A stretch of DNA of 64,000 nucleotides from an uncultured Anaerolineales bacterium (GCA_964622645.1 CAZUSV010000001.1:5317-69316); one strand, 5' to 3'; counted from the first letter of the stretch, positions 1 through 11,575 are shown. A program made the numbers and translations. Notes: generated by a model from the letters alone, not told the origin.

Positions 1-48
1 CCGGCAGATGATCAAACTGGCACATCTGCTGCTGATTTCCTGGTAGCC

Positions 49-2718
49 TTGCATTCCGTTTTTAGTGACCTAGAGCCGGGTGTCAGCATAGACCCAGGTC
101 CAAACCAGAGAACGCAAACCGTACGCTATATTGGGTCGACAGAACGCACGGCATTTGGCTGGATCATGTTCGAAGCCGACCGCTTGATGAAAAATCTGTC
201 CCTTGGCGAAGATAACGAGACCGGGGAACCCATCACGTCAGCTGTGCCAGGGCATGGCACTATGTTTGATTTTAGCTTTGCTTATCCTGGTGAAACAGGT
301 GTGGAAATCCGACGACGTTTCTGGTTTACGGTTGCCAATGTCCAATTGGGGCACACTGAGGACGGTTTGGGAATCGTCTTCCAAGACATCGACATACAAG
401 TTGAGACAGAATATCTCGATCAGAATTGGCAGACGCTCGAGATCCAGATGCCCGATCCAGCCGGGCAAGCATTTGCTGACCAACTCACCCAACATTATGA
501 TGAATATGCCCAAGAATTTCCCGTGCTGCGAGATCTAGAATCCCTGGTACGTTGGATGGCACTGGCGCGTTGGATTGAGGAAACCCCCCAGGTTATCAAT
601 ATCGATGCCCTGTTGTCTACGCCGGTTGACCTGATCGATACACCGGAAATGACGCCGGCCATCACGGTTGAACAAAGCCGTTCGACCACAACCAGTACCG
701 GTGAAGTCATCGAGACGATCACACTATGGGGTGGTGTTGATTTAGATTTCTCAATCGAATACTCAGACCTTGCTGCAGAAGAGGCTAATAACTTAGCAGC
801 TGCGATCGAAACGCAAAAAGAATGCGCCGGTGCGCGTTGTTCCCAGGCGAGTCGCGACGAAAATATCACTTCTCTGCAAACCTCAACTCTTTACAAAGGG
901 TATAGCTTAGACCTGGAGTTACCAAGTAGCCTGAGTTCAATCGGTGGTGAAAAAGTATTCACCATGATATACGATTCGACTTCCTCAGAATCTAATATTT
1001 CTAGTCCTGGTTGGTTGATTGGAGTACCTCATCTGGAATTTCCTCTCCCCGAACAAGAATACGAAGAATGGAATGAAGAACTTTATCCCACCATTGTCTG
1101 GGTGGATACTATTCAGGGCCACAGTCACCCAATGGTTTATCAAGGGAACATTGATGAGCAGGGAAATCTTTTATACATCAATCAAGAAGCCGGATTATTG
1201 CTAACCTGGAACGCGAGTGGATTTTCTCTTCAAAAAGCAACTTTTTACCCAGATGGAGGCTATTCTCAAAGTTCAGAATTCAGACAAGATTTCAATCGGG
1301 ATGGATTCTCCGTCAAATGGGTGTCAGATAGTGGCTCGCTTGTTTCGTATGCTTATACTGGTGGTTTGCTGAAAAAAATCTCTGGGCCTGAGGGTGATGT
1401 AGATTTCAAATACAATCAAGCAGGGAATCTCATCCAGATCACAAATCAGGAAACTGGTGATAGCCGGCGGTTTGACTATAATGATCAGGGACATTTAGTA
1501 AGAACAATTTCAACTGCTGGTGCAGTAATTTCTAGCTTTGTATATGATGATGACCAACGTTTAGTCGAGCAACGTAATGGGGATGACATTATTGAAAGCC
1601 AGCTGGCCTATGATAACTCAGGACGACTCCTCGCTCGAACGCATGATTCGACTGTTCTGGTTTACGATTGGCTGGCTGATGGGGGGGCACGTATTTACGG
1701 TTTGGGGGCTGGTAGTTCCCATTGGGTAGAGGGCTTAGGCACCCCAGTTCTAAAACAACTTGGAACAGTGATACGTATTTCGCTGCATGGAGCAAGTGTT
1801 GATCATGTTTTATACGTGCGTAAACTCGATGATAAAGCCTTGATGCTATTGGATGGCCGTACGCATGTACTACCTCTTGACGCGCTATCGAGTTCGAGAA
1901 TATTTCGGAATGCAATCAATGAGCTGAATCCTGCTATCAATCCAGATGATATTGTGCTGGTAGCAGATGGGGACAGTCAGGATATTGACTTTCAAGCTGC
2001 ATTTCCTGATTACCGCTGGCTGACGTCTGAGGGTTTGGATGAAAGTCAAATTCTACGCAATTTAGATGATTTTGAGTCTTTGGAGGTTCTTATGCCAGAT
2101 GTGACTGAGCTTTTCCTTGGCGTTCCTAGACCAGAAGAGGTTACAAAAGTTGGATTGAAAGCAGCAAATCGGGGGGACTGGGCAGGAGTTCTTGAGCAGT
2201 ATATAGAACTGGCAGAACGTTGGGATTTCGAACCTGCCACGGTTCAGCCTGAAAAAAAGTTAGCACAGCGAATGGAAGAGGCTTTTAAAGACAAAGCGGC
2301 TGTACTCATTGTGGTCGCGCATAGCGATGGCGAAAAAATATACTTACCAGATGGTACCTATTTTTCACCCGATGAACTATCCCAAGATGCAAGAGACGCA
2401 ATTGCAGCTAACAGGCCGGTGGTTATCTTAGTAAGTTGCCAGACAGCTCAGATGAATGATACTCGCTCTCTGGCCAAAAAATTGATTGATTTGGGAGCTC
2501 GTTTTGTTGTAGCACCCAAGGGAAATATCCCTGCTGTTTCCACGGTAGAATTCTTAAAGTCGTTTTTTGAGAACTCGGCAAAAAACCAACGCATTCCTGA
2601 CGCGTTATGGAATGCCAGTAGATTTATATACGAAATATATAAAAATATCCAATTCGAAAAAATAATTGGCCAAACCCCTCCGATCGATCAAGATATCAAG
2701 GAAAATCGGAGAGTATGA
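49..2718 (+). CDS. YD/RHS-repeat protein with C-terminal CHAT-like (caspase-fold) peptidase domain; frame is open back to nt 1, so the true start may lie upstream of the window
   Basis: 889-aa ORF; TTG at 49 is only the first in-window start. YD-repeat words: YAYTGGLLKKISGPEGDVDFKYNQAGNLIQITN, RRFDYNDQGHLVRT, FVYDDDQRLVEQ, LAYDNSGRLLART. The C-terminus has a His...Cys dyad context like CHAT domains: VLIVVAHSDGEKIYL ... RPVVILVSCQTAQ. Assignment from motif memory. Confidence 0.6.
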   Translation: MHSVFSDLEPGVSIDPGPNQRTQTVRYIGSTERTAFGWIMFEADRLMKNLSLGEDNETGEPITSAVPGHGTMFDFSFAYPGETGVEIRRRFWFTVANVQLGHTEDGLGIVFQDIDIQVETEYLDQNWQTLEIQMPDPAGQAFADQLTQHYDEYAQEFPVLRDLESLVRWMALARWIEETPQVINIDALLSTPVDLIDTPEMTPAITVEQSRSTTTSTGEVIETITLWGGVDLDFSIEYSDLAAEEANNLAAAIETQKECAGARCSQASRDENITSLQTSTLYKGYSLDLELPSSLSSIGGEKVFTMIYDSTSSESNISSPGWLIGVPHLEFPLPEQEYEEWNEELYPTIVWVDTIQGHSHPMVYQGNIDEQGNLLYINQEAGLLLTWNASGFSLQKATFYPDGGYSQSSEFRQDFNRDGFSVKWVSDSGSLVSYAYTGGLLKKISGPEGDVDFKYNQAGNLIQITNQETGDSRRFDYNDQGHLVRTISTAGAVISSFVYDDDQRLVEQRNGDDIIESQLAYDNSGRLLARTHDSTVLVYDWLADGGARIYGLGAGSSHWVEGLGTPVLKQLGTVIRISLHGASVDHVLYVRKLDDKALMLLDGRTHVLPLDALSSSRIFRNAINELNPAINPDDIVLVADGDSQDIDFQAAFPDYRWLTSEGLDESQILRNLDDFESLEVLMPDVTELFLGVPRPEEVTKVGLKAANRGDWAGVLEQYIELAERWDFEPATVQPEKKLAQRMEEAFKDKAAVLIVVAHSDGEKIYLPDGTYFSPDELSQDARDAIAANRPVVILVSCQTAQMNDTRSLAKKLIDLGARFVVAPKGNIPAVSTVEFLKSFFENSAKNQRIPDALWNASRFIYEIYKNIQFEKIIGQTPPIDQDIKENRRV

Positions 2719-2878
2719 TTATGGCCTTATTTGGATACCCTGGCACGGTCTGTGCTTACAGCGAGCCTCGCCGCTATGCGCGCCTTTGGCGGGTCAGACC
2801 GGCCTAAGCCCTTGAAAGGAAAACGAACGGTTACTTTGTTTACAGAGTATTAGCAATATTGCCAGAAGAGCCAATTCA

Positions 2879-4900
2879 ATGGCCAATTCAACAGGTGAAA
2901 AACCAAAATTGAATATTTTCGCCTTACCCAGCCAGACGACCCTGCTATTCTGGTTGATGGTCGTGGTGTTGCTAGCGGCTGTGATGCTTGGCAGCATTGG
3001 CCGTTCACCTATCCTCATCTGGCCCATGGCGGTTGGATTGTTATTCCTTCCGCTACGGGCATACCTGGCGCGCCCTGAGCGCGATTTCAAGCGCTTTGGT
3101 TTGGAGCATGCAGGGGAAGAATTTGCTCCTATCCGACAAGCTATAATGATTTACGCCATCAAATTGGGGTTGAAAAGGCATCCTGGGCTCGTAATCAGTC
3201 AAAGAGATATCCCTTTCCACACTTTCGGGACTTTTCGTCGTTGGTTTATAGCTATCGGACGAGAAGAAGCGGTAGATTTACTAGAGAGGATAAAAAATCC
3301 GGCGACTGCCTCCCAGGCATACGCCATGATCATTCACGAGCTTTATCATTTCAAAACGGGCGATTATTGGAAGATGGGCTATACAGGGGAATTATTGAAG
3401 ACGACCTTTATATTTTTAGGATGGGGGATTGCTTTCTTCTATGGGCTTGGGTTGTTGCTGGTTGTGGCTACTCCGGATTTCCTGGCGCTCAACCCCTCCG
3501 ATCTGATTTCGCAAATTGAAGGGATAACACCGGGAATGCAGCAAACCATGGTCCAACTATTGCCATCCGCAGCTGATATGGGCGTAATGCATCAAAGAGC
3601 GGCTGGGATAAATATGTCTTTGGTGCTCAACTTCATTATGAGTGCTATTTTCCCATTAGTTTTGATTGCCTTTCTCTTGTGGCGTTTTTACTGGCCCAAA
3701 CTTTGGCGAACACGAGAGTACTATGCCGACGCGGGCGTAGTGCATACTCAAGGAAAAATTGCACATTTTTTGTTAAGTTTTATCAAAGAGAAGTCACTCA
3801 AAGAAAGAGAAGAAAAATTTCAGCCGCGTGAAGATAATCGGTTTATTGCATGGTGGAGAAAACTATATGATGGCATATTGGATATGTCTCCCGCTTTTGT
3901 CCCAAGTTATGGCGCTTATACGGAAGAAGGTTTGGCTTCTCTATTTAATGGCGAGGTGATCCAGAGATCCCGTGGACAAAAAATTATCGCATGGTGGAAG
4001 AGAGTCACTTCTTACCATCCGGAAGTAATATCTCGAATTAATTGCGTGAAGAATCCTGCCTTGGCGTTTGACACCTGGTGGAGTACGGCTTTTCACGTAG
4101 GAAGCCTGACACTTCTACTGGATATTCTACTGAGTAGCCCATTAACATTAATTCATGTAGGTAACTGGCCGATGCATTTTTCCACCCTGGTCATCCTGGT
4201 GACAGTGTCGCTGGGATTTATACTCCCAACAATTGCACAAGGAAACCTGGTTTGGTTGGATCTAATTAAAATTGTTGGTCTGGTCGTTGGATTACGTCTG
4301 GCATGGCTTGCTTTTACTGTCTTAGCATTGTTTGTATCTCTTGTTATGGCTCCTGAATATCTCTCAGAGGCCCTCGAAGCTGCGGTGGCTAGCGTAGCAC
4401 ACTATGCGGGTTACGCAGATGACCTCGGTTTTGCTGATATAACTTCATTCTTACTGAGAGCAGCGCTACTCAACCTGGCTCAGATCTTGATCATTTTCTT
4501 CCTGCTCTTGTTCTCGTTGTATAGTATTGCTTGGTTGCTGCGTCGCCTCTTGACCTGGTACGGCTTCCCGCAAGTAGAAATACGCTTGATGCCGGTTGCT
4601 TCTCTGGTCGTTGTTCTGTGGGCAATTTTTACCGGGTTTACGATTTTGATGCCTATCACCCTGGCACTCTTGCATCCTGCTGACTTGATCAGGCCAGTTT
4701 ATCTCATATTGGAGTTGATTGGTTTCCTCCTGGCTTGTATTGGGATTGGTGTATTCACTCTAGCCGATCGAAAGTTCTCCAAAAGGTGTCCAAAATGCGG
4801 AACAGGTATCAGTGGTTTCTATTGGCTAGGTAAGTGTTGTGAAAATGATCAGTGCAAGGAAAAGCTTTTGCCCTGGTTGATCGCGGAGTATGAAGTGTGA
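2879..4900 (+). CDS. polytopic membrane protein with M48/M56-like HExxH zinc-metalloprotease motif and C-terminal Cys-rich zinc-ribbon
   Basis: 673-aa ORF with many hydrophobic helices. HExxH in AMIIHELYHFKTGDYW. C-terminal CPKCGTGISGFYWLGKCCENDQC. ATG start. Confidence 0.55.
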   Translation: MANSTGEKPKLNIFALPSQTTLLFWLMVVVLLAAVMLGSIGRSPILIWPMAVGLLFLPLRAYLARPERDFKRFGLEHAGEEFAPIRQAIMIYAIKLGLKRHPGLVISQRDIPFHTFGTFRRWFIAIGREEAVDLLERIKNPATASQAYAMIIHELYHFKTGDYWKMGYTGELLKTTFIFLGWGIAFFYGLGLLLVVATPDFLALNPSDLISQIEGITPGMQQTMVQLLPSAADMGVMHQRAAGINMSLVLNFIMSAIFPLVLIAFLLWRFYWPKLWRTREYYADAGVVHTQGKIAHFLLSFIKEKSLKEREEKFQPREDNRFIAWWRKLYDGILDMSPAFVPSYGAYTEEGLASLFNGEVIQRSRGQKIIAWWKRVTSYHPEVISRINCVKNPALAFDTWWSTAFHVGSLTLLLDILLSSPLTLIHVGNWPMHFSTLVILVTVSLGFILPTIAQGNLVWLDLIKIVGLVVGLRLAWLAFTVLALFVSLVMAPEYLSEALEAAVASVAHYAGYADDLGFADITSFLLRAALLNLAQILIIFFLLLFSLYSIAWLLRRLLTWYGFPQVEIRLMPVASLVVVLWAIFTGFTILMPITLALLHPADLIRPVYLILELIGFLLACIGIGVFTLADRKFSKRCPKCGTGISGFYWLGKCCENDQCKEKLLPWLIAEYEV

Positions 4901-5520
4901 AGATGAAATCTCGTTTGCTAACCTGGGTAACACGACTTTGTTGGGCAATTGTACTGCTTGATTTGTTGTTGATCTTTATTTTTCCATCCGAAATCTTCGC
5001 TGACAACCTGACCATGATGCTAGCCTACACTGTCTGGCTTTTGCTCACATTGTTTCTTACAATAACGTCATTGATGGTAATTTATCGCGGCTTATTTCAG
5101 TCTTGGATAGGTTGGATAACGCCGATTATCATATTAATATTCAGTAATTTGTTTTCCTCCGGTCAAATCCAAATCCATAATCCCAGGTTGTCCTTTTTTT
5201 ATGTCTTGCTTACCACTTTCAGTATGTGGGGGGTTGGTGTTGCTACGATAATTTTCCTTTGGTACCGGGATGTTGGATTGAAGCTGATAGCTTCAACATT
5301 AGTCATATTCACATGGGCTGGTTTTTTTATATGGTATTTCCAGGGCAATATATTTGATTTGCTGATTGCTAGTATAAATCAACCGGAAGTGACCTCACCT
5401 TTGTGGTGGCTCAATCCTTTCTTGTGTGTTTTTTGGTGGGTTATTCCTATTGGAATTAGTAGTTTCATTGTACATACTTTTCGAATCTTCGCCCGTGAGA
5501 TAAACCGTTCCAAATCTTAA
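4897..5520 (+). CDS. integral membrane protein, unknown function
   Basis: 207-aa ORF, about 6 hydrophobic helices. Its start overlaps the stop of the upstream gene by 4 nt (GTGA), which suggests translational coupling. Confidence 0.5.
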   Translation: MKMKSRLLTWVTRLCWAIVLLDLLLIFIFPSEIFADNLTMMLAYTVWLLLTLFLTITSLMVIYRGLFQSWIGWITPIIILIFSNLFSSGQIQIHNPRLSFFYVLLTTFSMWGVGVATIIFLWYRDVGLKLIASTLVIFTWAGFFIWYFQGNIFDLLIASINQPEVTSPLWWLNPFLCVFWWVIPIGISSFIVHTFRIFAREINRSKS

Positions 5521-5786
5521 TTGAGTAACTTTCGTAACCATTCGCTGGGGATGGATTAAGATAGTAGGGGTATTGTAGATAATAACTCTGTTAGTGTGGC
5601 ATAACCTCGAGAATAAGAACGCCTTCTAATTTGCCAAGTGATGTTTGTTGATATAGGCTTGTCAGTGTAAGAATCAGGAGATATTGGGGATAGTAATTAA
5701 TAGCAGAACATGTGGTTTCCTTATGCTACACAACCACGATTCTTTCTATATCACCCGTAACCCATTTTGTTGAAGTAGCCCCGACC

Positions 5787-6704
5787 ATGAATGAAAAATT
5801 AGATGCTATAGATAATACTCTAGTGGCTCAAGCCACAGCAACTACCAAACAGCACAACCCAACTGCCTATTTGTTGTCGAATTTATTGCACGATAAAGGA
5901 ATGACCCCAATATTTTGTCTTGTCTACGCATATTTCCGCTGGTTGGACGATTATATTGATGAATCAGGTACGGAATCTTTCTTATGTCGCCAGATGGTAG
6001 CTAGCCAAAAAGAACTCTTGGTTGAGGCTTATTCTGATCCCCGAATGTCAGCAAGCTCTATCCGTGAATCAATGCTAGTCACAGTTGCTAATTTTGACAA
6101 GAGCAGGCGAATGCTGTTGAAAACATCGATTTTTGATATGTTTTCAGCCCTCGAATGGGATTCTTATAGACGAGGAACGGTTGTATCATCTAAAGAATTA
6201 GCTCAGTATTCTTACTGGTTGGGTCGCTCCTACACAAAAGCTCTTCAGGCATGTATTGCTTACCCTTATGAGTATCCTGATCATGGATATAAATACTATG
6301 CTGGAGTTGGTGCCCATATTACTCATATTGTGCGTGATTTATTTGAGGATCTCGCAATGGGGTATATCAACATATCTAAGGAAGATATCAGGCGTTACTC
6401 GATAGATATTCGATGTCCAACTGCAACATCGCTGCGTGCGTGGACGCAAAAAACTGTATTATCTGCACGCAAGTATCTAAATTGGGGTAAGTTGTACCTA
6501 AATACACTGCCGATATTTCGGTGTCGATTAATGGGTTATTTGTACTGTTCGCGCTATGAGATGGTTTTGGATGCGATAGAGGATGCGAACTATGATTTGT
6601 CGATGAATCGATCTGAATCAGTTCGCAAAGGAAAATACTATTGGCAGGCTATCTCGAATGCTATATCAAGTCCAATGATGCGAGGCCACTTGCGAGTAGT
6701 ATAA
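5787..6704 (+). CDS. squalene/phytoene synthase family (head-to-head trans-isoprenyl diphosphate synthase fold), divergent
   Basis: Asp-rich motif 1 YAYFRWLDDYIDE; motif 2 region GAHITHIVRDLFEDLAMGYINISKED. The ORF track starts at GTG 5712; ATG at 5787 (MNEKLDAI) is preferred. Confidence 0.65.
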   Translation: MNEKLDAIDNTLVAQATATTKQHNPTAYLLSNLLHDKGMTPIFCLVYAYFRWLDDYIDESGTESFLCRQMVASQKELLVEAYSDPRMSASSIRESMLVTVANFDKSRRMLLKTSIFDMFSALEWDSYRRGTVVSSKELAQYSYWLGRSYTKALQACIAYPYEYPDHGYKYYAGVGAHITHIVRDLFEDLAMGYINISKEDIRRYSIDIRCPTATSLRAWTQKTVLSARKYLNWGKLYLNTLPIFRCRLMGYLYCSRYEMVLDAIEDANYDLSMNRSESVRKGKYYWQAISNAISSPMMRGHLRVV

Positions 6705-6726
6705 ATTATTGTAAGAGGAAGAGATC

Positions 6727-7557
6727 ATGATAGGTTATTCTCGCAGCCTAAGACTTGAATTGACGATGAAAGATATCGTTCAAGAAAATCAATATTATTG
6801 TGGATTGTGTCATGCACTACGTTTTGAAAACGGTACTCTTTTTTCCACATTGACAAATTATGATGGTCGTTTGGTTGGCATGCTTGTTGATGCCCAACGA
6901 ATTAATGAGCCCACCCAAGAAACGACAAAATGCCCCAGTCCTCCTTTCATCCATGAGCGAGATATTGTTGCTTATGGATCAACCACTCGATTTTCTGCTG
7001 CCCTCACAGTTTTGTTGGCTAGAGAGAAATTGTCGGATAATGTAATCGATGATTCAAATAAGCTTTCAAGATTTCTCTTGGGAAAGATTGATCCTTATGC
7101 AAACCGAGCCAAAGATACTTTGATGGAGTTGGGATTTCCCGTTGAAGAGATCGATGAGTTAAGGAACAGACAAGAGAATGTAGAGAAACAGACAGGTATT
7201 GAGCTAGACGAAATTTGTGCTCCAACATCGATGACACTTTCGCTGATTTTTCGGTTTACGGCTCATCTTTCAGGTAACCCTGGAAATATAAAAGAATTAG
7301 GAATGCTTGGTTCTGAGGTGGGAAAGGTTATATGTATGTTGGATGCTCTGAAGGATCTACATGCAGACCTCAATAAGAATCGCTACAATCCAATCGCTAA
7401 TTGTTTTGGAATTAATCTCGGGCAACAATTAACTTTAAAGGTGTACACAGAAATCCTTGCACTTCTCACAAGCCACCTACAATCAATTCATCGGTCTGTG
7501 CAAAAATTACAAATTTATCGCTATCGACATCCATTAGAGAATATTTTTTTGTGTTAG
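6727..7557 (+). CDS. DUF5685-like protein (uncharacterised family)
   Basis: N-terminus MIGYSRSLRLELTMKDIVQENQYYCGLCHALR...LTNYDGRLVGMLV matches my recollection of the DUF5685 signature (MxGY..EL...YYCGLC...L.YD). Lies 22 nt after the previous gene. Needs HMM confirmation. Confidence 0.45.
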   Translation: MIGYSRSLRLELTMKDIVQENQYYCGLCHALRFENGTLFSTLTNYDGRLVGMLVDAQRINEPTQETTKCPSPPFIHERDIVAYGSTTRFSAALTVLLAREKLSDNVIDDSNKLSRFLLGKIDPYANRAKDTLMELGFPVEEIDELRNRQENVEKQTGIELDEICAPTSMTLSLIFRFTAHLSGNPGNIKELGMLGSEVGKVICMLDALKDLHADLNKNRYNPIANCFGINLGQQLTLKVYTEILALLTSHLQSIHRSVQKLQIYRYRHPLENIFLC

Positions 7558-7597
7558 TTTTCCTCACCAAATCCAAAAAGCGCTTGATGCATTATCT

Positions 7598-8005
7598 GTG
7601 AATTCTGAGTGGGAGGGAGATCTTGCTCCCCCAATAGATGCTCAGCTCTGTCACTGCACTCGCTGCACTTCTATTCGTGAACAGGTAGATCATTGGCGTG
7701 TATATTTTGCCGAGAAAGCCTCTGACCTGCGCCCCGAGTGGGCTGCTGGAGCCCTACGGGAATTGCTGGGATTTGAAGATGCTTTGGGTAGGCGATGGAT
7801 ACAAGGGCAGTTGAAGAAAATGAGTACTGTGTATTTTGCAGCACTTCCATTACTCACTTTGCGACCCTTACAGCAGAGCAATCCTACTTGTGAAGATTCA
7901 TGTTCAGAGGGCTGTGGTGGATGTTGTCTTACGTATATGCTTTTATGTCCGTGTAGTGGTGAGGAGTGCACAATCTGCTGTTGTATGGGATCAGGTAATT
8001 ACTAA
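7598..8005 (+). CDS. hypothetical protein with extremely Cys-rich C-terminal tail
   Basis: 135-aa ORF (GTG start, no clear RBS). CHCTRC near the N-terminus. Residues 98-129 (CEDSCSEGCGGCCLTYMLLCPCSGEECTICCC) carry 11 Cys. An alternative ATG at 7820 would give a 61-aa product. Confidence 0.4.
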   Translation: MNSEWEGDLAPPIDAQLCHCTRCTSIREQVDHWRVYFAEKASDLRPEWAAGALRELLGFEDALGRRWIQGQLKKMSTVYFAALPLLTLRPLQQSNPTCEDSCSEGCGGCCLTYMLLCPCSGEECTICCCMGSGNY

Positions 8006-8069
8006 GTTCATGATGAGCCTGAAATTGATATCTCCCATAAGTATTGAATCTCGACGATAGGATCAAGAT

Positions 8070-9932
8070 ATGATCACCAAATACACTATTACTAACAACT
8101 TTGTTCTCTTATTGTTGATTGTCTTAGGTATTGGGGTGACTTTAATCGGATTTAGGAAAAACGATAATCCCCTCGAGAGAATGAATTGGATTATATATCC
8201 AACTTTTAATTTTTTTCTTGAGGCTGATTCTGTTCATCGGCCCTTCATGTCTACCGGTGATAGAATACATGAATCATGGATCGGCAAGAGTTATTGGTCT
8301 TCAAAGAATGAAAAGATAGATGGATTTGGAATGGGGTCATCCGCTCACTTGCGAGTTGGTGCGGATCAATTAGAAGCGGCGCTTGATGAATTGAAATCAA
8401 TGAATGTGCATTGGGTGAGAGAAGAAATCCCTTGGGCAGAAATCGAACCTTCGCCGGATTCTTTTCGCTGGGATTATTCTTTCGGAGAGACTCCTCGTGA
8501 TTTTTCCTTGCTCGTTTCTGAATTAGAAAAGCGAGATATCGAAATTGTGGCTCTCCTAGATTATGGCCCTATTTATGGAAATAAACCCATCCCTGAAGAT
8601 AAATTACTCATCCGCTGGGAGAATTATGTTCAAGCAGTGGTTATCAAATTTGGAGATCAGATAGATCATTGGGAGATCCAAAATGAGATGAATAGCCCTT
8701 TGTTTTGGGGGAAAGTTATATATACAGGGCAAAGCATAGATGCGCCTCCAGATCCCGAACTGTATACAAAAATGCTAGATCTTGCTTACACAGTAATCAA
8801 AAAACACAGTCCCGATGATGAGGTTGTCTTAGGTGGGTTAGTGGGTAATGTAAACGATAATTGTGAGACAAATCCTTTTGATTACCTTCATAAAGTACAT
8901 CAGGCTGGGGGTTGGAGTTCGTTTGACGTTATAGCAATACATCCTTATTGGGAAGCCAATCCACCAGAAGCTTTTATCAATCGTGGTCGGGGCCATTCTT
9001 CGGATTCAGGTGCTTGTCAATGGGATCAAACTGCAAATTACAATATGATCGGAGAGGCTCGTGCAATTCGCGACCTGGTCAATCAATTTGGTTCAAAACC
9101 TATTTGGGTCACAGAGGTAGGTTGGAGCCAAGGCTGGCTTGAAACATTAGCTGGTTATCGTGGCACAGATCCTGATTTTGCGGAGGCTGATTATCTAACC
9201 CGAACTTATATTCCGCTCCTTTCGGAACCAGGAGTGAACAAAGTGTTTTGGTATACACAATATGATGATCCTGGTATTTGGGATCAGTTTGCATTGGATT
9301 CGCCGGGCCAACAGGCTTTCCAGAATTTATCTTTCCTACTGACAGGGAGTACCTCACTTGGTCAATCCCAGGGGCAAGGAGATCAGGGCCTTCCAGGTGA
9401 CGATGATGTTTATGAATATCGTTTTGAAAAGGAGGGACAACTCATAATTGTGATTTGGAAATCGCGCGGAGGTGATGTCCCTCGAGATGTCACCATCAGC
9501 GATGTTGATGTTGATGAAATGCGCTTGTACAATCACGATGCTGATGACTTTTCTCCTGATGCAGGACGTGAGATTATTGTAGAAGATGGCAAATTGACCG
9601 TAAAATTGACAGAGCGTCCTGTAATCTTGATTTCTAGCGAGCTAAATTTGTTGGAACGCCTCCAATCAGATGCTCAGCGGAGAGTCGATGAATGGGTACA
9701 AGATCAAACTGAGAAAATATCTCGACAAATTGATGAATGGTGGCAGCGTCAGAGAGAAGAACTTGAACGACGGCTTACGGAATGGCTGCTATCCCAGTGG
9801 GAGAATTTTATTCAACAGCTTGAAGACGCTATCAACCGTTGGTTAGAAGAACAGTGCGCAAGTGTTGGCTTTGTTTTATTATTACCCCTGTTTGTATTAA
9901 TTGTCCGTCGAAAACAGAAGAAATCTGTGTAA
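8070..9932 (+). CDS. clan GH-A glycoside hydrolase (GH5/GH39-like) with N-terminal signal-anchor, C-terminal Trp-rich coiled coil and C-terminal TM anchor
   Basis: Acid/base motif HWEIQNEMN and nucleophile motif IWVTEVGW. N-terminal LLLLIVLGIGVTLIGF. C-terminal VDEWVQDQ...IDEWWQRQREELERRLTEWLLSQWENF...NRWLEEQ followed by GFVLLLPLFVLIVRRKQKK. Confidence 0.7.
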   Translation: MITKYTITNNFVLLLLIVLGIGVTLIGFRKNDNPLERMNWIIYPTFNFFLEADSVHRPFMSTGDRIHESWIGKSYWSSKNEKIDGFGMGSSAHLRVGADQLEAALDELKSMNVHWVREEIPWAEIEPSPDSFRWDYSFGETPRDFSLLVSELEKRDIEIVALLDYGPIYGNKPIPEDKLLIRWENYVQAVVIKFGDQIDHWEIQNEMNSPLFWGKVIYTGQSIDAPPDPELYTKMLDLAYTVIKKHSPDDEVVLGGLVGNVNDNCETNPFDYLHKVHQAGGWSSFDVIAIHPYWEANPPEAFINRGRGHSSDSGACQWDQTANYNMIGEARAIRDLVNQFGSKPIWVTEVGWSQGWLETLAGYRGTDPDFAEADYLTRTYIPLLSEPGVNKVFWYTQYDDPGIWDQFALDSPGQQAFQNLSFLLTGSTSLGQSQGQGDQGLPGDDDVYEYRFEKEGQLIIVIWKSRGGDVPRDVTISDVDVDEMRLYNHDADDFSPDAGREIIVEDGKLTVKLTERPVILISSELNLLERLQSDAQRRVDEWVQDQTEKISRQIDEWWQRQREELERRLTEWLLSQWENFIQQLEDAINRWLEEQCASVGFVLLLPLFVLIVRRKQKKSV

Positions 9933-10708: not shown

Positions 10709-10910
10709 GGAAACTCAGATACTTCTAAAAATGAATGAACCTGAGAACTTCGAGTTACCGGAGTCATATTCGTGTTGTAGGTAGAGAAGGTATCGTTTCA
10801 TCGAATGGATTATTCGATATTCGCGTTTTCAAGATGATCTTGCATAACCAAAAATGTGATACAATCAATGTGTCCACAAATGTGGAGCCATTTGTGTTTT
10901 GGAGGCTGAT

Positions 10911-11162
10911 ATGGTTACTGTAGGAGTACGAGAATTAAAACAGCAGGCCAGCGAGTTGATCCGCCAGGTACGTGAGGATGGCCAGGAAATTCAGGTAACT
11001 TACCGTGGTGAAGTTGTTGCACTGGTCGTACCTGTAAAAAGCCCACCAGAATCTGATAGTACAGCAGCCTGGGATCGCCTGGATGTGCTGGCGGCAGAGA
11101 TCGGTGCGCGCTGGCCAGAAGATGTCACCAGCGTCGAGGCTGTCGCCGAGGGGCGTTCATGA
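10911..11162 (+). CDS. type II antitoxin, Phd/YefM family
   Basis: MVTVGVRELKQQASELIRQVREDGQEIQVTYRGEVVALVVP. RBS GGAGG 5 nt upstream of ATG 10911. 4-nt overlap with the PIN gene. Inverted repeats CCACAAATGTGG / CATTTGTG at 10874-10896 are candidate operators. Confidence 0.75.
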   Translation: MVTVGVRELKQQASELIRQVREDGQEIQVTYRGEVVALVVPVKSPPESDSTAAWDRLDVLAAEIGARWPEDVTSVEAVAEGRS

Positions 11163-11575
11163 GTAAGTATCTCGTTGTCGATGCCAGCGTGTGGGTTGCC
11201 CGTCTGATTGCTCAAGATGCATTTCATGATCTCAGTCGTCGATGGTTGAATGTGCAGCGAGAACACGGGGTGCAATTTGTTGCTCCGACACTTTTGTTAG
11301 TCGAAGTCGCAGCTGCAATATCGCGCCGCACGGGGGACAGAGAGCTGGCAAAGCAGGCAGTGGAAGCATTGGAAGCTTTGGCTGACTTGCGTTTGGTGGA
11401 AATGGATCAGAGTGTTGTTCAATCCGCTGTTAATGCAGGCGCTGATCTGGGTGTGCGTGGCGCAGATGCATTTTATATCGCCATTGCCCAACAACTGTTC
11501 CTGCCTTTGGCTACTTTGGATAAGGATCAACTAGAACGTGCTAGTGACATGGTGGAGACAAAAACAATCGCCTGA
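11159..11575 (+). CDS. PIN-domain ribonuclease toxin (VapC-like)
   Basis: 138 aa. N-terminal LVVDASVWV (first acidic residue), internal LLLVEVA, C-terminal GADAFYIAIAQ...ATLDKD. Immediately follows the Phd-type antitoxin. Confidence 0.75.
   Translation: MSKYLVVDASVWVARLIAQDAFHDLSRRWLNVQREHGVQFVAPTLLLVEVAAAISRRTGDRELAKQAVEALEALADLRLVEMDQSVVQSAVNAGADLGVRGADAFYIAIAQQLFLPLATLDKDQLERASDMVETKTIA

Follow-up and report, generated by a model that had tools for sequence, protein, structure and literature searches.

A conserved and probably isoprenoid-related two-gene module of a squalene/phytoene-synthase-like enzyme and DUF5685, with a frameshifted copy in an uncultured Anaerolineales bacterium

The window analyzed here is a 64,000-nt stretch of DNA from an uncultured Anaerolineales bacterium (GCA_964622645.1, CAZUSV010000001.1:5317-69316), and our subject is a cassette of three open reading frames (ORFs) near its start. 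ORF1 (5712-6704), ORF2 (6727-7557), and ORF3 (7598-8005) lie in the same orientation and are separated by gaps of 22 and 40 nt, exactly as given in an earlier, sequence-only reading of this DNA. That reading had presented the cassette as an orphan unit of three genes with no counterpart among described systems. We likewise found no described system that combines these parts, and we hold with high confidence that the unit consists of two genes, the second of which is split. The earlier statement that the window has no other isoprenoid gene was also borne out: among the main ORFs of 180 aa or more, taken without overlaps and scanned with Pfam, no polyprenyl synthetase, SQS_PSY, CrtI-type desaturase, or cyclase gene was found in the 64 kb besides the cassette. 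The segment 5300-8300 yielded no Rfam family, no terminator, no repeat, and no promoter above chance.

The first gene encodes a SQS_PSY-like, head-to-head prenyl-diphosphate condensing enzyme. ORF1 matched PF00494 (SQS_PSY) with 53.5 bits, where the cut-off is 26, and an E-value of 3.7e-14, over model positions 2-252 of 263, in agreement with its previous description as squalene/phytoene-synthase-like. The start codon is more likely the ATG at 5787 than the in-frame upstream GTG at 5712, because gene callers choose the ATG and the lengths of homologues fit it; the resulting gene (5787-6704, plus strand) encodes a protein of 305 aa. Both Asp-rich motifs named by the sequence-only reading are kept. 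The first, WLDDYIDE (5940-5963, plus strand), contributes D54, D55, and D58, and the second, RDLFEDLAMGY (6333-6365, plus strand; motif table and L122/L123 alignments), which is followed by INISKE, contributes D184 and D188; these residues are invariant in 26 homologues. Since both motifs are retained, the protein should bind and condense prenyl diphosphates. The closest solved structure is a phytoene synthase (5iys, E 4e-6). Among the NCBIfam equivalogs, HpnC gave 25.5 bits (cut-off 250), HpnD 24.0 bits (cut-off 279), and CrtB 18.5 bits (cut-off 550); gene 1 is thus a member of PF00494 and of no curated equivalog. As a rule, the second motif took the form HI(L/V)RD(F/L)...GYxNIS in sequences with gene or lineage evidence of pairing with DUF5685 (9 of 10), and H(M/L)LRD...GYxNIP in the remaining homologues, of which three were examined and adjoin CrtI-family desaturases. 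The relatives of gene 1 that sit beside CrtI-family desaturases are 30-34% identical to it. From its NIS-type motif, P0160 was forecast to be paired with DUF5685, and the forecast held; P0212 is an exception in that it has NIS but together with HMLRDT.

The second gene belongs to DUF5685, as the sequence-only reading had proposed from its opening residues. ORF2 matched PF18937 with an E-value of 2.3e-40 and 139.2 bits against a cut-off of 26.7, over model positions 1-262 of 272, and is preceded by a Shine-Dalgarno-like AAGAGGAAGAG (6713-6723, plus strand), read from the sequence. A search for the family returned 2,238 cluster representatives at E ≤0.001 from sources that include human-gut Firmicutes; Lachnospira and Coprococcus carry DUF5685, and PMC9403866 lists a protein of the family for C. 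difficile R20291. Lengths and tail types were counted in the best 150 representatives, and residue conservation was taken from an alignment of 50 diverse members. Invariant or near-invariant positions were C25, C28, C69, D104, D108, Q149, E153, P166, G195, G199, D206, D210, D214, and N221, and the window protein has the full set of C25, C28, C69, D104, D108, D206, D210, and D214. On the plus strand, the motif YYCGLC (6793-6810) supplies C25 and C28 of a Cys triad, with C28 invariant and C25 present in at least 90% of the 50 sequences, and KCPSPP (6928-6945) supplies the third triad residue, C69, which lies on a beta hairpin (residues 64-81 in the model) and is invariant in alignments A2 and A4. 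The first Asp-rich motif, D104xxxD108, lies in LSDNVIDD (7030-7053), and the second metal-binding motif, D206xxxD210xxxD214 with N221, in LDALKDLHAD...NRYNP (7339-7392); both are invariant in the 50-sequence alignment.

In the window, the part of gene 2 that encodes the DUF5685 catalytic domain (6727-7557, plus strand) is cut at residue 276, inside the last helix. Downstream, ORF3 (7598-8005, plus strand) has a CHCTRC knuckle at 7649-7666, along with helices, one short hydrophobic segment, and a Cys string of 11 Cys in 32 residues (7889-7984) that contains no Trp, and the protein terminates in ...CCCMGSGNY. The tail is present as previously described, but it is not the product of a separate third gene: it belongs to gene 2, from which it is parted by one extra T in a T7 homopolymer (7544-7550, plus strand). 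The first search yielded only one close relative of ORF2, P0002, which is 82% identical and forms a continuous ORF of 378 aa that runs past the ORF2 stop and includes the whole of ORF3, and P0218, obtained by cluster look-up, is a full-length form of 429 aa that matched PF18937 with 134.7 bits over model positions 1-269 of 272. Both are ~82-85% identical to the window and show no break between the ORF2 and ORF3 parts. In the DNA alignment, the window reads GAGAATATTTTTTTGTGTTAG where the relative has GAGAATG-TTTTTTGTGTCAG; this sister haplotype has G followed by T6 and a single ORF, and removal of one T from the run in the window yields a perfect ORF of 425 aa. The stretch between the homopolymer and ORF3 looks intergenic but is a linker of 16 codons in the ORF3 frame (7550-7597, plus strand; CVSFPHQIQKALDALS), whose amino acids are identical to those of P0002 and P0218, with 5 synonymous and 0 non-synonymous differences. 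The ratio of non-synonymous to synonymous substitution rates (dN/dS) was 0.10 for the linker and ORF3 together and 0.22 for the ORF2 part, and 0.12 for ORF3 compared with L008; the linker and ORF3 are under purifying selection, and ORF3 is conserved at the protein level.

Several further observations fit a single gene. In the AlphaFold model of P0218, a helix at residues 267-292, with a predicted local distance difference test score (pLDDT) above 90, spans the break at residue 274/275, and the best 150 DUF5685 representatives are mostly 330-450 aa long, which corresponds to the domain plus a C-terminal extension. ORF3 has no translation signal of its own: its GTG start has no Shine-Dalgarno or comparable element, whereas ORF2 has the strong AAGAGGAAGAG. 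No match of ORF3 to Pfam or NCBIfam was found, and a word-indexed protein search with ORF3 returned nothing; its relatives came only through the cluster look-up and the fused P0002. From these sequence comparisons we take ORF3 to be the frameshifted C-terminal part of gene 2 (its last 135 residues) and not an independent gene. A role for ORF3 as a RiPP precursor was rejected, as it has neither a Shine-Dalgarno element nor an ATG, the linker upstream is coding in the same frame, and ORF3 is fused in relatives. The case illustrates how a one-base homopolymer frameshift can mimic an additional gene.

Seven independent assemblies (L001-L007), which differ in sample and pipeline (JGI, ENA), have the T7 run and are 100% identical over the covered part of 5712-8005 (1.6 to 2.3 kb each), and the intact haplotype co-occurs in the same sample (3300009314). 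Because seven independent assemblies that are identical at the locus share it, the T7 allele is probably real and not an assembly error. The split allele is probably a recent mutation, and would be defective unless +1 slippage of tRNA-Phe on UUU_U, which may occur, rescues it to a low degree. A decaying pseudogene, in which DUF5685 is inactivated by the cut in its last helix and the loss of its tail, and in which ORF3 is untranslated, is a possible but doubtful account of the window copy, and one that concerns the allele and is compatible with any mechanism for the family. The recurrence of T7 across the seven assemblies, the lack of a Shine-Dalgarno element or ATG at ORF3, the position of the stop inside a confidently predicted helix, the intact haplotype in the same sample, and the recombination breakpoint at the locus, within a low-GC and variable region, all speak for decay, but the 456 nt downstream of the shift carry no second lesion, a +1 slip on UUU_U would restore the frame exactly, and the dN/dS of 0.10 in the tail implies that any inactivation is very recent. 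An error of sequencing or assembly, the true genome having T6 and one intact gene, is improbable: homopolymers are error-prone and a one-base correction gives the perfect 425-aa ORF, yet the identical T7 recurs in separate assemblies of different samples and pipelines, and with only 7 nt the run is rather short to provoke a systematic error in short reads. A programmed +1 ribosomal frameshift or transcriptional slippage at T7, yielding truncated and full-length DUF5685, is very unlikely, for although UUU_U would let tRNA-Phe re-pair perfectly in the +1 frame, a stop in the 0 frame follows three codons after the UUU codon (TTT-TTG-TGT-TAG), and the downstream frame is intact and constrained, the arrangement is not conserved, with the sister haplotype and all other relatives in frame, and the site has no stimulatory RNA structure after it (z = +0.69), no clear upstream Shine-Dalgarno-like stimulator, and no Rfam match.

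The sister haplotype itself (L113) is 100% identical to the window over 2701-6750 in a sliding-window alignment and ~85% identical from inside gene 2 onward. When L113-L116 were compared with window positions 1-8300, the breakpoint fell at ~6800-6850, and one blastn segment covered window positions 1-7999. These identities mark a recombination junction inside the DUF5685 gene. In L113, an extra Amidase_3 gene lies between the DUF5685 gene and the next gene.

The structure of the DUF5685 domain was predicted with AlphaFold2 (pLDDT 96.1; predicted TM-score, pTM, 0.92) and was found to be all-alpha with one beta hairpin; residues 300-429 of the intact P0218 were modeled with low confidence. A Foldseek search of the PDB returned MoeN5 as the top match (E 1e-4), followed by trans-prenyl diphosphate synthases, with TM-scores of 0.55-0.65; the latter were the geranylgeranyl-diphosphate synthases (GGPPS) 1wy0 and 5jfq, the hexaprenyl-diphosphate synthase (HexPPS) 2azk, the octaprenyl-diphosphate synthase (OPPS) 3wjk, and a Methanosarcina geranyltranstransferase. 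A DUF5685 profile gave only marginal matches to PDB sequences (E 0.05-1), which were to polyprenyl synthetases. In the best of them (4lob), which at E 0.046 is not significant, D104xxxD108 fell on the first Asp-rich motif (FARM) DDVVDE and the second DUF5685 motif on the second Asp-rich motif (SARM) region IIDDILDYTSD. No PF00348 match at E ≤1 was found, and when the profiles of DUF5685 and of the gene 1 clade were compared, the result lacked significance (probability 1.3%), so that the two partners are not detectably homologous by sequence. The model indicates a trans-prenyltransferase (isoprenoid-synthase) fold for DUF5685, and the fold matches together with the placement of the Asp motifs lead us to regard it as a divergent member of the isoprenoid-synthase superfamily, one that appears to keep the diphosphate-Mg binding signature and to add the Cys triad. 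This invariant triad is likely a site for Zn or another metal. From fold and motifs, we infer that DUF5685 binds and ionises a prenyl diphosphate, and its description as an isoprenoid-diphosphate enzyme is probably right. The product of gene 2 had been called an unknown Cys-motif protein; the Cys motif stands, as part of the triad, but membership of the terpenoid-synthase superfamily by predicted fold had gone unrecognized. No functional literature on DUF5685 or PF18937 was found.

Some DUF5685 domains carry much larger extensions. P0030, P0085, P0142, and the proteins at L036:5806-10218 and L039:2719-6966 are fused to C-terminal regions of 1,100-1,470 aa that include Big_1/MG4 Ig-like and Lcl_C domains. 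The extension of P0061 has a sub-threshold match (E 7e-4) to DUF2600, a family of class IB terpene synthases.

Conservation of the gene pair was examined by running local hidden Markov models of gene 1 homologues and of DUF5685 representatives on the six-frame ORFs of all fetched loci. A SQS_PSY-like gene abuts or overlaps DUF5685 in eight lineages that are independent and deeply diverged (the window, L027, L033, L034, L035, L117-119, L122, and L123), with the gene order reversed in L035, and the first two members of the cassette are thus conserved as neighbors. L027 (36% identity) has an upstream fragment that is 43% identical to gene 1 (E 3e-20). Pairwise identities among the eight paired lineages are 28-55%, and the GC content of the hosts ranges from 38 to 61%. 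Over ten pairs, the identities of one partner track those of the other (r = 0.85), which is what a long shared inheritance would produce. No further neighbor common to the paired loci was found. A genome scan with an alignment of 11 closer DUF5685 sequences recovered mostly gut Firmicutes, and because ~85 more distant DUF5685 loci, again mostly from gut Firmicutes, have no SQS_PSY neighbor, the pairing defines a sub-clade and not the whole family. Two loci have additional isoprenoid genes. In L124, a polyprenyl synthetase (PF00348, 1.7e-50) is followed by DUF5685 and a geranylgeranyl-reductase-like FAD gene, with no SQS_PSY in the pair position, and in L035, DUF5685 is followed by the SQS gene and a geranylgeranyl-reductase-like gene (GGR_cat, 29.9 bits against a cut-off of 27). 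Taken as a whole, the locus is a conserved two-gene isoprenoid module.

Two details of these high-GC relatives are recorded here. The SARM region of the L124 polyprenyl synthetase reads FQLQNDINN and is degenerate. At both L124:1-3579 and L035:6001-9356, the DUF5685 protein beside the geranylgeranyl-reductase-like gene has a CC or Cys-string tail.

Cys strings, defined as at least 6 Cys in the last 40 residues, recur in the family: among the best 150 representatives, 69 end in a Cys string, 22 in a zinc-ribbon-like element, and 50 in other sequences, and 9 are shorter than 300 aa. A transmembrane (TM)-like segment between domain and tail is absent from 53 of the 69 Cys-string representatives and from the window protein, and judged from sequence the tail should for this reason be cytosolic, like the domain. 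Where a paired DUF5685 has only a zinc ribbon, a separate downstream gene carries the Cys-rich tail. Thus, DUF5685 is followed in L117 by two paralogous zinc-ribbon/TM/Cys-string proteins, one ending in ...VCCFCAWFYRCCCCCELPP, in L033 by a 76-aa zinc-ribbon/TM/Cys-tail protein, in L122 by one such protein, and in L034 by a zinc-ribbon/TPR protein ending in CLFCLARCMY. The window and L035, in which the tail is fused, have no Cys-tail neighbor. In the assessable SQS-paired loci the tail is found on DUF5685 or on a neighbor and never on both; L123 has neither, and L027 is too short to judge. The combination of a SQS_PSY-like enzyme, DUF5685, and a Cys-dense tail, which the sequence-only reading had singled out in the window, accordingly recurs in L117, L033, L122, L034, and L035. 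Of 99 other loci, 72 have, after DUF5685, a J-domain + TPR protein (PF00226, ~1e-20) with a hydrophobic Cys-string end, e.g., ...NFCMDLCLANLLCNCCMPC; a small TM protein with a double zinc ribbon comes before DUF5685 in 61 to 71 of them. Fusions of DUF5685 to DnaJ occur as well (P0070 and P0111).

The loci of this conserved Firmicutes triad of TM protein, DUF5685, and J protein are L009-L026, L040, and L043-L112 (e.g., L009:2115-3984), and their J protein resembles a bacterial cysteine-string J protein. A literature search found no functional work on bacterial cysteine-string J proteins.

The explanation that we favor joins these elements in a two-gene isoprenoid module that acts on the tail, and we give it a probability of roughly 0.35. 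By way of Mg2+ on the Asp motifs, DUF5685 would bind an allylic prenyl diphosphate, ionise it, and transfer the isoprenoid to the thiolates of the Cys string, either on its own tail or on that of a neighboring protein. The metal of the Cys triad may activate the thiolate, as in zinc-dependent thiol alkylation, and gene 1 would supply or reshape the donor, e.g., as a C30 or C40 cyclopropylcarbinyl diphosphate; the outcome would be a lipid-anchored protein. Both S-prenylation of the Cys strings, which taken alone is rather unlikely, and this role of gene 1 are offered as hypotheses only. The most far-reaching form of the proposal, which we consider improbable though worth stating, is that DUF5685 represents a new class of bacterial S-prenylating protein lipid-transferase, a metalloenzyme that has Mg at its Asp motifs and Zn at its Cys triad and that, in the clade described here, uses an unusual C30 or C40 diphosphate donor made by its SQS_PSY-like partner. 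Its acceptors would then be its own tail, the small zinc-ribbon membrane proteins, or the J-domain co-chaperone of gut Firmicutes. Terpenylation of a Cys-rich product had been put forward in the sequence-only reading, and the idea gains support from the predicted prenyltransferase fold and from the polyprenyl synthetase and geranylgeranyl-reductase-like neighbors, although the Cys tail proved to be that of gene 2.

The main rival view of the same genes, tentative and on present evidence doubtful, is a free-lipid pathway of the CrtE/CrtB kind, in which DUF5685 is a prenyl-diphosphate or terpene synthase that feeds the SQS_PSY-like enzyme, a free C30/C40-type lipid is made, and a geranylgeranyl-reductase-like enzyme saturates it in some relatives. 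The Cys triad, zinc ribbons, and Cys string would in that case be structural, metal-dependent regulatory, or membrane-tethering elements and not substrates. Several points favor such a pathway: the closest folds include the chain-elongating GGPPS, HexPPS, and OPPS; the nearest relatives of gene 1 stand beside CrtI-family desaturases in ordinary carotenoid-type pairs; the 64 kb hold no other polyprenyl synthase to feed gene 1; L035 and L124 have geranylgeranyl-reductase-like neighbors; and many tails look like metallothionein or DnaJ zinc-finger repeats, a likeness that also counts against lipidation. On the other side, the bulk of the DUF5685 family (~85 loci) has no SQS_PSY partner, and the function of the family therefore cannot depend on one. 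The canonical polyprenyl synthetase of L124 would make a second chain-elongating enzyme redundant there, DUF5685 has no PF00348 match and aligns only weakly with enzymes of the trans-isoprenyl diphosphate synthase (trans-IDS) type at its two Asp motifs, and a free-lipid pathway leaves unexplained why Cys strings shift between DUF5685 and unrelated neighbors.

Further points against tail prenylation come from the tails themselves and from characterized enzymes. The counts of Cys-tail neighbors come from many near-identical gut loci, and the Cys-string association amounts to ~7 independent lineages. Many tails are hydrophilic (CxxCGxx)n or Cys/Asp/Gly repeats, which as sequences look more like metal-binding stretches of metallothionein or DnaJ zinc fingers than like lipidation sites. 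A TM-like segment precedes 15 of the 69 Cys strings, and those tails could be extracellular. At the C-terminus, CC/CxC endings exceed expectation only modestly (27 against 16.7) and were not used as evidence. No observation accounts for the role of the SQS_PSY partner, and the copy in the window has the frameshift and may lack function. Every characterized trans-IDS-like peptide prenyltransferase targets Trp and not Cys, and a 2026 review lists no Cys-targeting enzyme among the trans-IDS-like prenyltransferases (PMC13290415).

A metal or Fe-S handling or chaperone-linked module, in which the Cys elements bind or traffic metal, the terpenoid fold is a scaffold only, and the J-domain neighbors point to Hsp70-assisted handling of metal clusters or clients, fits the many tails that resemble metallothionein or DnaJ CxxCxGxG repeats, the J-domain neighbors and fusions, and the pervasive zinc ribbons, but is improbable in view of the five invariant Asp at the FARM/SARM diphosphate-Mg positions, which argue for catalysis on a diphosphate substrate, the consistently isoprenoid neighbors (SQS_PSY, polyprenyl_synt, and geranylgeranyl-reductase-like), and the lack of any metal-transport, Suf/Isc, or metalloregulator gene nearby in Pfam scans of the window. 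Metal handling had been the alternative offered by the sequence-only reading, and nothing specific beyond Cys content came to its support.

The surroundings of the cassette comprise RHS/CHAT, FHA, and BTAD-AAA-TPR proteins, a toxin-antitoxin pair, sugar ABC transport, and sugar catabolism. GC content is ~42-47% over most of window positions 1-26000, with the exception of one 2-kb bin at 16-18 kb (55%), and mostly 50-59% over 26000-64000; the low-GC first 26 kb contain the RHS/CHAT, the cassette, the PhdYeFM/PIN pair, and the FHA proteins, and the remainder carries genes of sugar transport and catabolism as well as an aldehyde:ferredoxin oxidoreductase. It is possible that the cassette sits in a region that is variable or was acquired. 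The PhdYeFM antitoxin and PIN toxin pair (~10899-11575, plus strand), annotated from the identical contigs L001-L003, lies ~3 kb downstream of the cassette. Upstream, a gene at 2879-4900 (plus strand) encodes a 673-aa multi-pass membrane protein with HELYH and REYYAD motifs (M48/HtpX-like) and a C-terminal CPKC...zinc ribbon, and overlaps by 4 nt a gene for a 207-aa membrane protein of no family (4897-5520, plus strand). The NCBIfam HtpX match of the 673-aa protein reached E 0.34 only, and a link of this HExxH protein to CaaX proteases, for which that match and motifs read by eye were the sole support, was dropped. Synteny of the 673-aa and 207-aa membrane protein genes holds within the window lineage only. 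Downstream, a 620-aa protein (8070-9932, plus strand) has a weak match to a glycosyl-hydrolase catalytic core, a hydrophobic and basic C-terminal end with a sub-threshold GlyGly-CTERM-like match (E 0.44), and a copy in the sister haplotype that is 85% identical. These upstream and downstream proteins were excluded as parts of the module, as they are not conserved with the pair outside the window lineage.

DUF5685 is a large family without an assigned function, and the present analysis provides handles on it in the form of a predicted prenyltransferase fold with intact diphosphate-binding motifs, isoprenoid gene contexts, and a link to Cys-string tails and J-domain proteins. The superfamily is known, that of isoprenoid synthases; the architecture and the gene partnership are new. 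The recurrent tie of DUF5685 to Cys strings across bacteria hints at an undescribed isoprenoid-protein chemistry. That the tails are acceptors is a real but minority possibility, and one that would be categorically new: DUF5685 would be the first Cys-directed trans-IDS-like prenyltransferase, the Firmicutes loci would encode the bacterial equivalent of J proteins that are lipidated, whether of the cysteine-string or the Ydj1 type, and the finding would matter for how chaperones are targeted to membranes and would provide a means of lipidating proteins. To our knowledge, native S-prenylation of proteins in bacteria has not been reported before. If the tails are not acceptors, the SQS_PSY-DUF5685 pair remains the sign of an isoprenoid lipid pathway, as yet undescribed, in uncultured bacteria from marine and sediment sources.

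Among known systems, protein farnesyltransferase (FTase) and geranylgeranyltransferase (GGTase) alkylate a zinc-activated thiolate with a prenyl diphosphate and are alpha-alpha barrel heterodimers. Their fold differs from that predicted for DUF5685, and the window tail (...CCCMGSGNY) has no C-terminal CaaX, CC, or CxC box; prenylation of the CaaX type was rejected on both grounds. Cys-dense C-terminal tails are known to act as lipid anchors, as in DNAJC5, which is palmitoylated by DHHC enzymes and not prenylated; by analogy, the neighbor of DUF5685 in Firmicutes, with its J-domain and Cys string, may be likened to it. CrtB, CrtM, HpnC, and HpnD share PF00494 membership and both Asp-rich motifs with gene 1. 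They differ in that the phytoene synthase 5iys has GRIYL at the position aligned with GYxNIS of the gene 1 clade, and in that gene 1 has DUF5685 as its partner in place of a desaturase, with no carotenoid or hopanoid genes nearby. MoeN5, GGPPS, HexPPS, and OPPS are the best structural matches of DUF5685 (Foldseek E 1e-4 to 1e-2, TM-scores 0.55-0.65) at 8-17% sequence identity. Where PF00348 enzymes have DDxxD twice, DUF5685 has DxxxD and DxxxDxxxD, and its additions relative to them are the beta hairpin, the Cys triad, and a C-terminal zinc-ribbon or Cys-string extension.

The trans-IDS-like enzymes ComQ, PalQ, and ChrPC (P domain) prenylate peptides, which makes them the precedent for polypeptides as substrates of this fold, and use longer prenyl donors (PMC13290415, PMC10853753). 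In contrast to DUF5685, which has the invariant Cys triad and the DxxxDxxxD second motif, ComQ has no SARM; ComQ-type systems have no SQS_PSY-like partner; and the ComQ-type acceptor residue is Trp, whereas the candidate acceptor of DUF5685 is a Cys string, which in the window (7889-7984) is free of Trp. Like DUF5685, however, the ComQ, PalQ, and ChrPC P-domain enzymes are members of the isoprenoid-synthase superfamily, are nearest to trans-prenyl diphosphate synthases, and keep one or more Asp-rich motifs, and in both cases the enzyme gene is adjacent to or fused with that of a proposed acceptor polypeptide, a role that is hypothetical for the tails described here.

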